This document shows positions 3-40,784 of a stretch of 41,184 nucleotides of DNA, piece by piece. The stretch lies in the sequence record NC_093713.1; one strand, written 5' to 3'. Each line of letters starts with the position of its first letter. The first letter of the stretch is position 1. A program made the position numbers and the translations under genes. Origin of the DNA: a phage. Below the pieces are notes generated by a model. The model did not search any database. It saw only the letters and a list, made by a program, of their open reading frames with translations, and was not told where the DNA came from.

Positions 3-746
3 CTTGCGGGAGTTCCGGAAGATGCGCCTCTCTGGACGGGAAGCCCGCCTTGCCAACCGTTTAGCGCGGCGGGAAAGCAACTCGGACAGTTCGACCCGAG
101 ACACCTCGCACCTGTGTTCCTCGACCTTATCAGCGAGTGCCGACCTCCAGTCCTCTTTGGGGAGCAGGTTGCGCCAGCAATTGCAAAATCGTGGATGTGC
201 GATTTACAAACTCACCTGGAAGGAGAAGACTACGCCGTCGGGTTTGCCGTACTCCCAGCTTGTAGCGTCGGCGCACCGCACAAACGCGACAGACTGTTCT
301 TCGGCGCGCACAGACTGGCCCACACCGGCGGTATCACTGATAACAAACGACGTGAACATGCGCAGCACAGACGGCAGGACGAAACCGAACAAACTGGGAT
401 GGGCCGCTGCGATGGCGGCTTGGCCTACACCGACAGCGAACGACTACAGGGGGAGCGGAGAGACAGTGATTCGCAAGGACGGGAAGGACAGGACATTCGA
501 CAGGCTGGACTACTCGACGGAGCAGGGTCTGAAAATAACACAACCTATTCGCATCACGGCTTCTGGTCAGATGCTGACTGGCTCGGATGCCGGGATGGGA
601 AATTCAGGCCAGTTGAACCCGGCGCATTCCCGCTGGCTAATGGGATACCCGCCAGAGTGGGACGATTGCGCGGTTATGGCAATGCCATCGTCCCGCAAGT
701 AGCCGCTGAATTTATAAAGGCATTCATGGGGGCGGTAAATGAGTAA
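3..746 (+). CDS. DNA (cytosine-5)-methyltransferase, 3' portion (N-terminus is at the window end, 41003..41184); conserved motifs are split between two reading frames
   Basis: Frame 3 carries PCQPFSAAG (motif IV), PHKRDRLFFGAH (motif VIII) and C-terminal GNAIVPQVAAEFIKA (motif X). Frame 1 carries WPTP repeats and LNPAHSRWLMGYPPEWD (motif IX-like). Both frames are open over ~700 bp. Confidence 0.6.
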   Translation, partial: LAGVPEDAPLWTGSPPCQPFSAAGKQLGQFDPRHLAPVFLDLISECRPPVLFGEQVAPAIAKSWMCDLQTHLEGEDYAVGFAVLPACSVGAPHKRDRLFFGAHRLAHTGGITDNKRREHAQHRRQDETEQTGMGRCDGGLAYTDSERLQGERRDSDSQGREGQDIRQAGLLDGAGSENNTTYSHHGFWSDADWLGCRDGKFRPVEPGAFPLANGIPARVGRLRGYGNAIVPQVAAEFIKAFMGAVNE

Positions 747-2163
747 GTTTCAAAGGCGCGAATACCAGAAGCTCATGACTTCGTTCATGCTGCGGCACCA
801 TCGCTGCAATATCTGGGCGAGCATGGGCAGCGGTAAGTCGGGGTCAACGTTGTGGGTTCTCAATCGACTGTTCCGTAATGGGCAACTTAATGACGACGAC
901 CGAGTGTTAATTCTGGCTCCTTTACGTGTTGCGTCAGGTACGTGGCCCGCGGAACAGGCATGTTGGAACTTCCCCTGTCTGAGTGTCGTAGACGCAACCG
1001 GTTCAGAGAAGCGCCGTATCGCGGCGCTGGAGTCAGATGCTAACGTGGTGTGCACAAACTACGAAGTTATCGAGTGGCTGATTGACTACTACGGCAAAGA
1101 CGACTGGCCTTTTACGGTTATCGTTGCTGATGAGAGCACGAAGCTGAAATCTTTCCGTAGCCGTTCTGGAGGAAGCAAACGGGCTAAGGCGCTAAGCAAA
1201 GTGGCGTTCGGAAAGGTTAAGCGTTTCATTAACCTGACAGGCACACCGTCGCCGAACGGCCTCAAGGACTTGTGGGGGCAGAACTGGTTTATCGACGCTG
1301 GCGAGCGCCTTGGTTCTTCGTACACGGCATTCACAGACCGCTGGTTTAACTCGGTACAGAAAGGGAAATCCGCGATGGCGCGGGAGTATCACGCACGACC
1401 GGGTGCGGATAATGAGATTCATCAGAAGATGAAAGACATTAGTCTCACGATTGACGCCGCCGAGTGGTTTGGATGTGAAGCGCCGATTATTGTACCAGTG
1501 GAAATTGACCTGCCGAAGAAAGCGCGTCAGGCATATACCGATATGGAGGAGAAGTTATTTGCGGAACTGGAGAGCGGAGAAGTGGAAGCGGCTAACGCGG
1601 CGGCGAAGACGTCGAAGTGTTTGCAGATTGCTTCTGGTGCTGTGTATGTATCAGGGCCAGACGGAGAAGCAACCAAAGACTGGGAGAAAGTGCACGACAC
1701 GAAACTGGATGCGCTGGAGTCAATTGTTGAGGAGTTACAGGGTGCTCCGCTACTGGTAGCCTATCAGTTCAAGCACGAACTGGAGCGTATCCTGAAACGT
1801 TTCCCGCAGGCGCAGGCATTCGCGAAAGGTGCTAAGGGTAATAAGCAGATGGAAGCATGGAACCGCGGCGAAATCGAAATCTTATGCGTGCATCCTGCGT
1901 CGGCCGGACATGGTTTGAATTTACAGGACGGCGGACATCATCTGGCATTCATCTCGCAAGGCTGGAACCTTGAGCACTATTTGCAGGTTGTCGAGCGCAT
2001 AGGCCCAGTTCGCCAGAAGCAGGCAGGCCACGAACGCCCGGTGTTCCTGTATCACATCGTTGCTAAAGACACACTGGACGAGGTTGTTGCCGCGCGTACC
2101 GACGAGAAGAAATCGGTACAGGAAGAGTTGCTTAACTACATGAAGAGACGAGGTAAGAAATGA
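739..2163 (+). CDS. SNF2/DEAD-like superfamily 2 helicase
   Basis: 474 aa; Walker A GSGKSGS, DExx-like VIVADEST, motif III LTGTPSPN; ATG with upstream G-rich SD; overlaps methyltransferase stop. Confidence 0.8.
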   Translation: MSKFQRREYQKLMTSFMLRHHRCNIWASMGSGKSGSTLWVLNRLFRNGQLNDDDRVLILAPLRVASGTWPAEQACWNFPCLSVVDATGSEKRRIAALESDANVVCTNYEVIEWLIDYYGKDDWPFTVIVADESTKLKSFRSRSGGSKRAKALSKVAFGKVKRFINLTGTPSPNGLKDLWGQNWFIDAGERLGSSYTAFTDRWFNSVQKGKSAMAREYHARPGADNEIHQKMKDISLTIDAAEWFGCEAPIIVPVEIDLPKKARQAYTDMEEKLFAELESGEVEAANAAAKTSKCLQIASGAVYVSGPDGEATKDWEKVHDTKLDALESIVEELQGAPLLVAYQFKHELERILKRFPQAQAFAKGAKGNKQMEAWNRGEIEILCVHPASAGHGLNLQDGGHHLAFISQGWNLEHYLQVVERIGPVRQKQAGHERPVFLYHIVAKDTLDEVVAARTDEKKSVQEELLNYMKRRGKK

Positions 2164-2300: not shown

Positions 2301-2333
2301 AAAGGCCCCGTTCGGGGCCTTAGTTTTATTTAT
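2301..2333. terminator. bidirectional rho-independent terminator between convergent helicase operon and tailspike
   Basis: AAGGCCCCG-TT-CGGGGCCTT stem with T-runs on both strands; near-identical sequence recurs at 14826..14856. Confidence 0.6.
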
Positions 2334-14825: not shown

Positions 14826-14856
14826 AAAAAGGCCCCAAACGGGGCCTTAGTTTTAT
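14826..14856. terminator. bidirectional rho-independent terminator
   Basis: AAAAAGGCCCC-AAAC-GGGGCCTTAGTTTTAT between the convergent island and the major tail gene. Confidence 0.65.
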
Positions 14857-27471: not shown

Positions 27472-27625
27472 TTTTACGCGCTCCCCACATGCGATTGAGA
27501 TACTTGTTCTTGTCCGGCCCAGGGAAACTGTTACGTTTCATCAGTTCCTCGCGTGTCGGGAACGGGGCGTGACTGACTTTACGGCCTACTCGTAACGGTT
27601 GGCTTACTGGGCCTTGTTCGCTCAT
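27464..27625 (-). CDS. small protein (53 aa), hypothetical
   Basis: Hand-translated MSEQGPVSQPLRVGRKV...; SD AGGAGA; ATGA coupling. Confidence 0.4.
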   Translation of the reverse strand: MSEQGPVSQPLRVGRKVSHAPFPTREELMKRNSFPGPDKNKYLNRMWGARKND

Positions 27626-27771
27626 TTCTTCTCTCCTGCATAAGCTGCTTTAAGTGTCTGCATCGCAGCGAACCAGAACGCGTCCGCTGGAATGCTGTTG
27701 CTCAGGTTACTAACGGCGATGCGTGCCATCAGTTGTGCGTCTTTGAATGCTTCGATGTCTGTGATTTTCAT
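27622..27771 (-). CDS. small protein (49 aa), first gene of the operon
   Basis: Hand-translated MKITDIEAFKDAQLMARIAV...; SD GGAG. Confidence 0.4.
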   Translation of the reverse strand: MKITDIEAFKDAQLMARIAVSNLSNSIPADAFWFAAMQTLKAAYAGEKK

Positions 27772-27804: not shown

Positions 27805-27833
27805 AATATAATAGGGTCTAAGGTAATAGTCAA
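27805..27833 (-). promoter_or_regulatory. sigma70-like promoter (TTGACT-N17-TATATT) for the small-gene operon
   Basis: Hexamers with 17 nt spacing just downstream of two terminators. Confidence 0.5.
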
Positions 27834-27855: not shown

Positions 27856-27887
27856 AAAAAAAATCCCGGCTGGGGCAGGGCCGGGAT
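27856..27887 (-). terminator. rho-independent terminator
   Basis: ATCCCGGC...GCCGGGAT stem followed by T8 on the - strand. Confidence 0.7.
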
Positions 27888-27926
27888 AAAACTGGAGAGC
27901 AGAGGGATGGAACAGGAGGTGATTTA
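27860..27926 (-). ncRNA. candidate small RNA, ~60-70 nt, containing an anti-Shine-Dalgarno-like AUCACCUCCU
   Basis: TTGACA-N17-GATACT promoter (27955..27927) followed ~60 nt later by a T8 terminator; no ORF on either strand. Confidence 0.25.
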
Positions 27927-27960
27927 AGTATCGTCGGATTAGTCTCAGGTGTCAATTGGT

Positions 27961-27988
27961 AAAATAAAACCCGGATTCGCGGTCCGGG
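27961..27988 (-). terminator. rho-independent terminator after the lysis genes
   Basis: CCCGGA-CCGCGAA-TCCGGG followed by TTTTATTTT on the - strand. Confidence 0.65.
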
Positions 27989-28117
27989 TTTCGGTCATAA
28001 GCCCTGAACCCTACGCAGTCTCCACCGCTTGGGCTGCTGCTTCGGGTTTACCGGGGCTTAGTATGCAAGCACAAGCAGCGTAGGGATAAGTTTACTAAAC
28101 GCCTTCGTATTCGTCCA

Positions 28118-28603
28118 TCATTTAACAGCCCTCCCAATAGCCTCAGCCTCTTGCCACGGTTTACCGTCGAACAGCGCCAGACGCCCGGCTGTACGGCGAC
28201 GCAGGCCAAGTAGTGGTTTGCCGTTCTGGTTGATGAACAGCGCCAGCTTAGCCCGCAGTGTTGCAGTATCACCAGAACGCAGTGCCTTGCCTGCGCCCGT
28301 AGTAGACGCAATCACGCCAGCACCTGCGTTATAGACCAGGTCGCACACTGCATCAAACTGCGCCTGTGTCAGGGAGTGGTGTGCTGCTGCGTCAACCGCA
28401 GCTACAGCCTTAGCCATATCACGATTCAGTAACAGGAGGCCTTGCCCTGGCGTGATGGTCTTACCTGGTGTTACGTCTGGCCCGTAGTGACCATAACCAA
28501 TAGTCAGGTACTTCTCGTTCGGCGTAGCGCGATACGCAGTTCCGCGGAATCCCTCGAACGCGGCACAGAAATGCAATCCATTATCTGAAATATTTCGAGA
28601 CAT
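28118..28603 (-). CDS. endolysin, phage lysozyme (glycoside hydrolase family 24-like)
   Basis: 161 aa; N-terminal FEGFRGTAYRATPNEKYLTIGYGH consistent with the T4 lysozyme catalytic E/D/T region. Confidence 0.75.
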   Translation of the reverse strand: MSRNISDNGLHFCAAFEGFRGTAYRATPNEKYLTIGYGHYGPDVTPGKTITPGQGLLLLNRDMAKAVAAVDAAAHHSLTQAQFDAVCDLVYNAGAGVIASTTGAGKALRSGDTATLRAKLALFINQNGKPLLGLRRRTAGRLALFDGKPWQEAEAIGRAVK

Positions 28604-34555: not shown

Positions 34556-34622
34556 GTGAATAGTACCATATTAATTATTTTAGAAAAGCCCATTGACAAC
34601 GTGAATAGTTCGCTATTATAGT
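34556..34622. promoter_or_regulatory. divergent promoter region with two copies of the conserved palindromic element
   Basis: Rightward TTGACA-N18-TATAGT overlapping GTGAATAGTTCGCTATTATAGTT; second, degenerate copy TGTGAATAGTACCATATTAAT toward the repressor gene, whose own -35 is poor. Confidence 0.55.
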
Positions 34623-36739: not shown

Positions 36740-36768
36740 TTGACACCTGAATAGTTAGCTATTATAGT
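36740..36768 (+). promoter_or_regulatory. sigma70-like promoter (TTGACA-N17-TATAGT) with conserved palindromic element
   Basis: CTGAATAGTTAGCTATTATAGTT in the spacer and -10. Confidence 0.55.
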
Positions 36769-40503: not shown

Positions 40504-40784
40504 CCCCGGAAGGCAAAATACAGAAATACGCAAAAGAGCGATTCGAGGCCATCGGCGGCCTCGTTCGTAAGCTCTCCTACGAAGGACGTTCGGGTGCCCC
40601 TGACCTGCTGGTAATTCTCCCCGGCGGCATAGTCTGGTTCGTCGAGGTGAAGAAAGACGAAAACACGAAGCCAGACCCGCACCAGATACGTGAGCACGAG
40701 CGGATGCGTAAACGTGGTGCGAATGTTTTTGTCGTTGGTTCGTTTAAACAGGTTGACGACCTAATAGCGAGCTATTATAGTTAG
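40500..40784 (+). CDS. VRR-NUC domain nuclease
   Basis: 94 aa from ATG at 40500; PDLLVILPGGIVWFVEVKKDENTKPDPHQ fits the VRR-NUC pattern. Confidence 0.65.
   Translation: MTPEGKIQKYAKERFEAIGGLVRKLSYEGRSGAPDLLVILPGGIVWFVEVKKDENTKPDPHQIREHERMRKRGANVFVVGSFKQVDDLIASYYS
40753..40781 (+). promoter_or_regulatory. sigma70-like promoter (TTGACG-N17-TATAGT) with conserved palindromic element, inside the 3' end of the VRR-NUC gene
   Basis: CTAATAGCGAGCTATTATAGTT. Confidence 0.5.

Follow-up and report, generated by a model that had tools for sequence, protein, structure and literature searches.

The question raised by the 346-bp gap that follows the endolysin gene of phage NC_093713.1 is whether it serves solely as a boundary between two sets of genes or also gives rise to a small RNA (sRNA). 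The window analyzed here, the full 41,184 nucleotides of that record, is the genome of a Kagunavirus (Guernseyvirinae) in which 501 bp around the gap are ∼99% identical to K1ind2 and K1ind3; 150 phage records match this 501-bp region, the best being Escherichia phages K1ind3, K1ind2, and G AB-2017 at 99%. All genes at the locus are on the minus strand, and the gap extends from the endolysin stop codon (TGA at 28120-28118) to the ATG of the next gene at 27771, which corrects the length of ∼280 bp given in a preliminary description. The motifs listed in that description, all on the minus strand, were confirmed, and its interpretation is partly supported. What emerges from comparison with relatives is a unit of promoter (P1), CU-rich tract, and intrinsic terminator (T2), from which a discrete 65-nt RNA is, on balance, probably made.

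The comparison set comprised 79 IMG/VR loci, fetched via the endolysin protein, together with GenBank loci; individual loci are referred to below by L numbers. The anatomy of the interval was derived from ∼45 relatives, constraint on the promoters, tract, and T2 was counted over 41 distinct sequences, and folding of the variable part of the gap was assessed over 14 distinct variants. Read against these relatives, the gap consists of an accessory insert (28117-27956), then P1, the CU-rich tract, and T2, and finally a second promoter, P2. The features of the P1-T2 unit and its surroundings are as follows.

27927 to 27955, minus strand: promoter P1, with TTGACA at 27955-27950, a 17-nt spacer, and GATACT at 27932-27927 (10 of 12 consensus positions).
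27914 to 27923, minus strand: 10-mer ATCACCTCCT, resembling an anti-Shine-Dalgarno (anti-SD) sequence, with 10/10 identity to the 3′ end of 16S rRNA and a CCUCC core.
27856 to 27920, minus strand: predicted 65-nt non-coding RNA, its start (A27920) placed by spacing 7 nt after the −10 hexamer and its end at the U-tract.
27856 to 27887, minus strand: intrinsic terminator T2, with a stem formed by 27887-27880 and 27870-27863 (ATCCCGGC, 9-nt loop, GCCGGGAT), followed by T8 and preceded by TTTTAT.
27805 to 27833, minus strand: promoter P2, predicted to serve the downstream small-gene block, with TTGACT, a 17-nt spacer, and TATATT (10 of 12 consensus positions).

Within the window, P1 and P2 rank with the top promoter matches. 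The −10 hexamer of P1 has A at position 2 and T at position 6, and the spacing lies within the range of 16-18 nt. None of the 12 hexamer columns of P1 varies, as against 12 of the 17 spacer columns; invariant hexamers around a drifting spacer bear out the TTGACA-N17-GATACT promoter that had been proposed from the letters of the window. For P2, the corresponding counts are 0/6 for the −35 and 1/6 for the −10 hexamer, compared with 12/17 for the spacer. The conserved block starts exactly at the −35 hexamer of P1, whatever sequence adjoins it upstream, and from this TTGACA (27955) to the start of the next gene, conservation is 87-98% in every Kagunavirus locus. The hexamers and spacing of P1 are also those of lambda PL (TTGACA, 17 nt, GATACT), from which P1 differs in having no operator-like palindromes. 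Elsewhere in the window, three strong promoter matches on the plus strand (34593-34622, 36740-36768, and 40753-40781) share a palindrome in the spacer, TGAATAGTTnGCTATTA or TAATAGCGAGCTATTA, probably the operator of a phage regulator. P1 is without the palindrome TGAATAGTTnGCTATTA and shares only TTGACACCTGA, and P2 shares the CTATTATAKT context.

T2 combines 8 bp with U8 (−13.8 kcal/mol, z = −2.3). Its T-tract is invariant in the 41 distinct sequences, with a T-run of 7 to 14 among relatives, and in the divergent locus L035 and Jersey-like phages the hairpin persists although its sequence differs, at −11.6 to −18.2 kcal/mol and with U8 or more. The stem occurs as CCCGGC/GCCGGG, CCCGGTAA/TTACCGGG, GCCCCGA/TCGGGGC, and GACCCGAG/CTCGGGTC, in each case followed by U8 or more, so that the changes are compensatory. 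The second terminator with a T8 tract, placed ∼60 nt after the promoter in the preliminary description, is therefore retained across genera. The records of Schulenburg and Shashou carry T2 as an annotated terminator; a pattern scanner listed neither T2 nor the first terminator of the gap, T1, the former likely because its 9-nt loop exceeds the accepted 3-8 nt. At window positions 2302-2321 and 14829-14848 there are near-identical hairpins of the form AAGGCCCC-NNNN-GGGGCCTT, the latter of which scores as a terminator on both strands.

The length polymorphism of T2 also bears on coding potential. A 41-aa open reading frame (ORF; 27955-27830) begins at the −35 hexamer and runs through T2, and coding by it is ruled out because the T-run of 7 to 14 T shifts the frame among relatives. 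In silico, the gap thus contains no credible ORF, in agreement with its earlier description as a non-coding region 3′ of the endolysin gene. Rfam 15 gave no match at the gathering score in the window, nor in 20 related loci; a permissive scan of the region yielded nothing beyond sub-threshold hits driven by the terminators, and ARAGORN found no tRNA, tmRNA, or tRNA-like element.

The module of P1, CU-rich tract, and T2 was found in 120 GenBank phage records, in 119 of them at near full length, from phages of Escherichia, Salmonella, Raoultella, Klebsiella, and Shigella hosts. Conservation of the promoter-to-terminator unit in related genomes is thereby established for these 120 records, with hexamers invariant in the 41 distinct sequences. 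The module was found in none of 5,426 complete Escherichia coli genomes, and a host origin is not supported. Among the GenBank records listed, the sole non-gene annotation on the module is “terminator,” in three records. The two promoters and two terminators, with their conservation, are evident in silico, and a short RNA is the expected product of a promoter that is under such selection and lies 65 nt before a strong terminator.

The predicted RNA reads 5′-ACCUCCUGUUCCAUCCCUCUGCUCUCCAGUUUUAUCCCGGCCCUGCCCCAGCCGGGAUUUUUUUU from A27920, and relatives have 22 distinct variants of it. Neither the minimum free energy nor the centroid structure pairs any of the first 33 nt, which begin with ACCUCCU and are 82% pyrimidine (C14, U13, A3, and G3). 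The 3′ part consists of UUUUAU, an 8-bp GC-rich hairpin, and U8. An Hfq-binding module is a terminator hairpin with a long 3′ U-tail and a U-rich stretch ahead of it, and the 3′ part of the predicted RNA has this layout. The short transcript proposed earlier stands as a prediction: the spacing of promoter and terminator would yield an RNA of ∼65 nt with a free CU-rich 5′ end.

The explanation that best accommodates these observations, held tentatively and at a little below even confidence, is a composite boundary separating the lysis cassette from the operon that follows it, in which P1-T2 would make an Hfq-type, sRNA-like RNA. In this scheme the accessory insert would comprise a vestigial gene end, a 63-nt hairpin, and terminator T1, which would stop lysis-gene transcripts. 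The genus-wide, putatively σ70-dependent P1 would then fire into T2, with host RNA polymerase making an abundant 65-nt RNA (27920-27856) whose free, pyrimidine-rich 5′ half (ACCUCCU...), UUUUAU, 8-bp hairpin, and U8 would provide the layout of an Hfq-binding, base-pairing sRNA. In relatives that lack the insert, the same sequence would double as the 3′ untranslated region (UTR) of the lysis mRNA, which T2 would end. P2 would restart transcription for the downstream genes. The RNA would act in trans, its CU-rich seed (CUCCU, CCCUCU) pairing with purine-rich, SD-like segments of mRNAs. This last step, action by CU-rich pairing with SD-like sequences, is considerably more doubtful than the existence of the RNA.

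The case for such pairing begins with the resemblance to the 3′ end of 16S rRNA (...GAUCACCUCCUUA-3′). The motif noted near the promoter in the preliminary description is present, matches at 10/10 positions, and is the only exact copy of ATCACCTCCT in the window. On the plus strand, it reads as a perfect SD sequence, AGGAGGTGAT, that serves no ORF, as had been stated: start codons at a workable spacing are lacking, the candidates being GTG-ATT-TAA within the SD itself and a GTG that lies 27 nt off. Among relatives the 10-mer varies to CACTCCTTG (L027 and L034) and CATGCTCCTG (L035), CTCCT being kept in all; further variants of the motif are CACUCCUUG and CAUGCUCCUG, and CUCCU and CCTCT are retained in all variants of the genus.

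Several observations weigh against a selected anti-SD function and, in part, against the sRNA itself. Only ACCTCCT (27920-27914) of the 10-mer is likely transcribed from P1, and this heptamer is not over-represented in the window (2 observed against 3.06 expected). The presence of CCUCC is unsurprising because the tract is 82% pyrimidine; from the tract composition, the chance of finding it in so CU-rich a stretch is estimated at about half. Four of the seven columns of the anti-SD tract vary, so that it is no better conserved than the promoter spacer, and in the Jersey-like sister genera the C-rich tract (AAAUUCCACCCAGCCAGCC) is without CCUCC. Pairing with 15 nearby phage translation-initiation regions gave −21.9, compared with a mean of −22.7 for shuffled seeds. 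The published time-course RNA-seq study of a Kagunavirus (vB_Eco_K1B4; PRJNA939978/PRJCA028359) analyzed genes only and left intergenic RNA aside. The seed region beyond the anti-SD tract varies in 15 of 26 columns, like the spacers. A literature search on phage-encoded sRNAs with anti-SD sequences returned only unrelated material, and further searches found no transcript map for this gap and no account of sRNAs in the Guernseyvirinae. The anti-SD idea is regarded as unproven.

Two specific pairings were considered and rejected. The best non-self duplex in the phage genome lies in the helicase coding sequence (739-2163, plus strand) at 1563-1577, with −35.4 kcal/mol compared with −32.7 kcal/mol for the best of 32 shuffles; the site is a 15-nt complement, AACTGGAGAGCGGAG, to the CU-rich RNA, within a Glu-rich stretch. 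When 32 contigs were paired and 30 of these phage pairs scored, G-to-A changes in the sRNA had no matching C-to-T changes in the helicase gene, and synonymous changes broke the pairing without compensation, which also counts against the sRNA reading. The helicase complement is most likely a GA-rich coding coincidence. Pairing of the leader anti-SD with the downstream SD (CUCCUGUUC with GAACGGAG) is possible in the window, and T-to-C variants in six relatives are uncompensated.

The strongest alternative to the sRNA reading is that the locus is a plain operon boundary, an explanation that is possible though short of probable. T2 would then end the lysis transcript, with the C-rich, G-poor tract as its 3′ UTR and possibly as a Rho-loading backstop; P1 and P2 would be tandem promoters for the small genes and terminase, with T2 attenuating P1; the 65-nt RNA would be a by-product without function in trans; and CU-richness would account for the anti-SD match. 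In most relatives, the TGA that stops the endolysin gene is part of the TTGACA of P1, and nothing therefore separates the endolysin gene from P1; in these phages, which are most of Kagunavirus, T2 is the first terminator that follows the endolysin gene. What is shared with the Jersey-like sister genera is the C-richness rather than CCUCC; that these phages have the same order, in which a −10-like element directly adjoins the stop codon of the endolysin gene and is followed by a C-rich tract, then a terminator, and then a P2-like promoter, speaks for the composite boundary with an sRNA. The composition of the tract (14 C and 3 G in 33 nt), the lack of ACCTCCT enrichment, and the failure to find targets in the phage genome fit the same explanation. 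In L021 and L030, moreover, the P1 region is altered and the CU-rich tract and T2 are retained, so that a 3′-UTR or terminator role may be the more basic one, a further point against the sRNA reading. Set against the plain boundary is the invariance of the P1 hexamers beside a drifting spacer, which implies selection for initiation 65 nt before a strong terminator. The window, moreover, keeps P1, the tract, and T2 even though T1 would by itself end the lysis transcript there. A C-rich stretch of 33 nt is, in addition, short for a Rho-loading site.

A second alternative places a function in the accessory insert itself. In the window, 162 bp (28117-27956) separate the endolysin stop from P1. This stretch is one of several alternative inserts at this site, and it was matched in only 41 phage records, all of Escherichia Kagunavirus; the 5,426 complete E. 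coli genomes held no match, and a host origin is again not supported. The features of the insert are as follows.

28095 to 28118, minus strand: mini-ORF reading MDEYEGV and a stop, which overlaps the endolysin stop (TGATG) and forms the left end of the insert.
28009 to 28085, minus strand: 77-nt nested inverted repeat noted in the preliminary description, with CCCTACGC at 28085-28078 and GCGTAGGG at 28016-28009 enclosing GCTGCTT/AAGCAGC.
27998 to 28060, minus strand: imperfect 63-nt hairpin, with TAAGCCC/GGGCTTA enclosing AACCC/GGGTT and GCAGC/GCTGC.
27961 to 27991, minus strand: intrinsic terminator T1, with a stem formed by 27991-27984 and 27974-27967 (AAACCCGG-loop-CCGGGTTT), then TATTTT, and the tail TTTTATTTT.

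The same left end occurs in L009, L021, L022, L028, and L029, and in a variant reading MEENWDV and a stop in L025, L031, and L040. The left end (TGATGGACG...TTTAGTAAACT) resembles the 3′ end (...ATTGGACGCGCGGTTAATTAG) of Jersey-like endolysin genes, which is followed there by a −10-like TATAGT. It also holds a weak promoter-like site, TGGACG-17-TAAACT, that matches consensus at 8/12 positions and was not called by the scanner. The mini-ORF and this site are probably a recombination vestige of the 3′ end of another endolysin allele.

The nested inverted repeats of the preliminary description are present as sequence and are not conserved as a structure. The 77-nt fold has a stability of −29 kcal/mol with z = −1.29, 21 of 200 shuffles being equally stable. 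Folding across relatives failed to retain the outer stem: over the 14 variants, 72.6% of cells were paired with no compensatory change, and the pair 12-82 was broken in 9/14. The two arms are found apart in relatives, the left arm alone and joined directly to T1 in L025, L030, L031, and L040, and the right arm alone, preceded by an unrelated left flank, in L021, EM1, Shashou, and Schulenburg. The nested structure was rejected as a conserved fold on these grounds, and it belongs to a variable insert.

RNAalifold on the 14 variants prefers the 63-nt hairpin, which folds as a single sequence at −26.4 kcal/mol (z = −2.10) and has one covarying pair (CG:12, UA:1) that sits in a single alignment row, that of Shashou, to which Schulenburg is identical. 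The L025-type insert is without this hairpin, its left flank meeting T1 directly. T1 has 9-10 bp followed by UUUUAUUUU (−14.4 kcal/mol), a hairpin plus U-run; all of its stem pairs are invariant in the 14 variants, and T1 is therefore uninformative on compensatory change. It is also found 3′ of a 25-aa ORF in L040. From these comparative features, the terminator reported to follow the structured element is upheld, and T1 is predicted to end transcription of the lysis cassette in insert-bearing phages.

Judged by sequence, hairpin plus T1 is the discrete module actually conserved within the insert. That this module (28060-27961) is functional, as a 3′ stabilizer of the lysis mRNA, an RNase III site, or a small RNA from TGGACG-17-TAAACT, is unlikely. 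Its junctions are sharp (between TTGC and ATACTAAG) and it is found in two different left contexts; the z score of the hairpin, the one compensatory pair, and the presence of another module with clear covariation at the same hot spot in relatives would also fit such a role. Against it, the insert is known from 41 closely related records only, in which copies are at least 87% identical, so that the comparison has little test power and the evidence that hairpin plus T1 works as an RNA is thin. The single covarying pair is confined to one row, the promoter-like site went uncalled, and the insert is absent from most members of the genus.

An antitermination checkpoint of the lambda PR′-tR′ type is very unlikely. 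P1 would in that case be constitutive, with polymerase stopping at T2 until modified by a phage factor and the RNA representing a terminated leader; the placement of a strong promoter and a close terminator before a lengthy co-directional gene block, which continues into terminase and morphogenesis genes, has a lambdoid precedent (PMC7547250). The checkpoint is unlikely because P2 directly follows T2, which would make antitermination redundant, and because a scan of the 17 neighboring proteins, the only ones scanned, found no antiterminator-like family, whether of the Q or N type or another. The first transcribed bases (ACCTCCTGTTCC) are also without a −10-like pause element of the lambda type.

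Equally improbable is a takeover role for the RNA in a virulent phage: transcribed on DNA entry from a promoter with the lambda PL hexamers, it would mask SD sequences with its 5′ end as a 16S mimic or titrate S1 or Rho with its C-rich tract, and the post-endolysin slot of the Guernseyvirinae would be a dedicated site for expressing interchangeable non-coding RNAs.

The genes that flank the gap are as follows.

28118 to 28603, minus strand: endolysin gene, a 161-aa ORF with Pfam Phage_lysozyme (PF00959, E = 4e-27), labeled endolysin in K1ind3, Schulenburg, and XY1.
27622 to 27771, minus strand: first downstream gene, 49 aa, phrog_2180, of unknown function, with an SD sequence (GGAG) at 27783-27780.

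From 27771 on there are nine small ORFs of unknown function, up to the small terminase gene (26051-25467). The gene order in Schulenburg is co-directional and consists of small genes, two holins, endolysin, the gap with its annotated terminator, small genes, terminase, and structural genes.

The junction between the endolysin stop and the P1 −35 hexamer is, by sequence comparison, a recombination hot spot (window 28117-27956; same site in L004-L053). Inserts at this site in other phages consist of a 25-aa ORF, a membrane-like ORF of 30 aa, or an RNA-like module of ∼90 nt, singly or combined. The 25-aa ORF (MALQEFTNPVKSRDDIDEQVGYGEG) and the 30-aa ORF (MTEIDFILLSIGVGAVVGAFWGAIDAFRKG) both stop at the TGA of TTGACA. 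In L021 (2682-2785), an insert of ∼97 bp with perfect 13-bp terminal inverted repeats (TTAGGCGAGTAGT...ACTACTCGCCTAA) lies exactly between the P1 −10 hexamer and CACCTCCTG and looks like a miniature mobile element or hairpin cassette.

The ∼90-nt module lies outside the window. It occupies the same post-endolysin hot spot in L015 (2520-2610), L022, L030, L040, and L247 of Kagunavirus and in the Jersey-like L047 (2520-2600), and it is also present in L280 (655-790; T4-like RB5) and L281 (625-800; rV5-like nomo). Its 32-nt core, RACCTGTAAYAAGGTC-NRGCCMAAGTGCGGTAAYGSG, is found at 90-94% identity in mostly unannotated DNA of ∼550 phage records, positioned between Ip4 and vs.8 near lysozyme e in T4-like phages and upstream of the tRNA cluster in Vequintavirus. 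Upstream of the core is a 5-bp stem, of which 4 pairs show compensatory changes across 7 sequences, and a pseudoknot (CTCCGG..CCGGAG; TTCCGG..CCGGAA in L030) is possible. The module had no Rfam match, and nearly all hits in a scan of IMG/VR with a 15-mer of it were due to chance, with one real extra copy. Kinship between the hairpin of the window and this L015-type motif was rejected: the region 27998-28090 gave no hit at E ≤ 10, with filters off, to covariance model R1 of the L015/L047 hot-spot motif. A different hairpin, with a conserved loop ACGAAAC and a compensatory C/G swap (GCGCT/AGCGC compared with GCCCT/AGGGC), is shared by the Jersey-like loci L036 (∼2560-2590) and L048, where it is part of long non-coding inserts that separate the endolysin gene from the terminator equivalent to T2.

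To our knowledge, strictly lytic coliphages have hardly been surveyed for regulatory RNAs. Kagunavirus phages are common in therapy collections and include K1-capsule phages. If the 65-nt RNA is real, it would be a compact, genus-wide sRNA of Kagunavirus with an easily mutated seed; if it is not, T1/T2 and P1/P2 still define a transcription boundary that is useful for annotation. The post-endolysin site, as an exchange hot spot for small ORFs and RNA modules, is of use both for annotation and for the choice of insertion sites in engineering.

The preferred reading, an sRNA made from P1-T2 at an operon boundary, can be set beside known systems. The lambda 6S RNA and StxS are alike in that a strong promoter and an intrinsic terminator within tens of nucleotides give a short non-coding RNA by the lysis and late genes; both are transcribed from the late promoter PR′ and end at tR′, and StxS binds Hfq and regulates in trans (PMC7547250). 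The present unit differs from both in that no Q-type antiterminator was found among the 17 neighboring proteins and a second promoter follows the terminator. It lies after the lysis genes rather than before them, the group is described as lytic, and there is no sequence similarity.

MicL, the promoter of which lies inside cutC, shares its terminator with the mRNA (PMC4102768). The arrangement in most Kagunavirus phages is similar, with the P1 −35 hexamer overlapping the endolysin stop and a terminator shared with the mRNA. The window differs from MicL in that an insert with its own terminator stands between gene and P1, and no relation is apparent in sigma factor, sequence, or targets. DapZ is likewise a 3′-UTR sRNA with a promoter inside the upstream gene.

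The best sub-threshold Rfam match is RF02278 (Betaproteobacteria toxic sRNA), which resembles the predicted RNA in its shortness, its CU-rich 5′ portion, and its GC hairpin with a U-run behind it. The score (24.9 bits, E = 0.007) is far below the gathering score of 50 and the aligned part is essentially the terminator, so that the predicted RNA is not a member of this family. CU-rich seeds of sRNAs, as in RF02278 and CyaR, are said to mask ribosome-binding sites, although a literature search did not confirm the CyaR seed. Taken with these precedents, the layout of the P1-T2 unit makes it plausible as a credible, hitherto undescribed phage sRNA candidate of a known kind.

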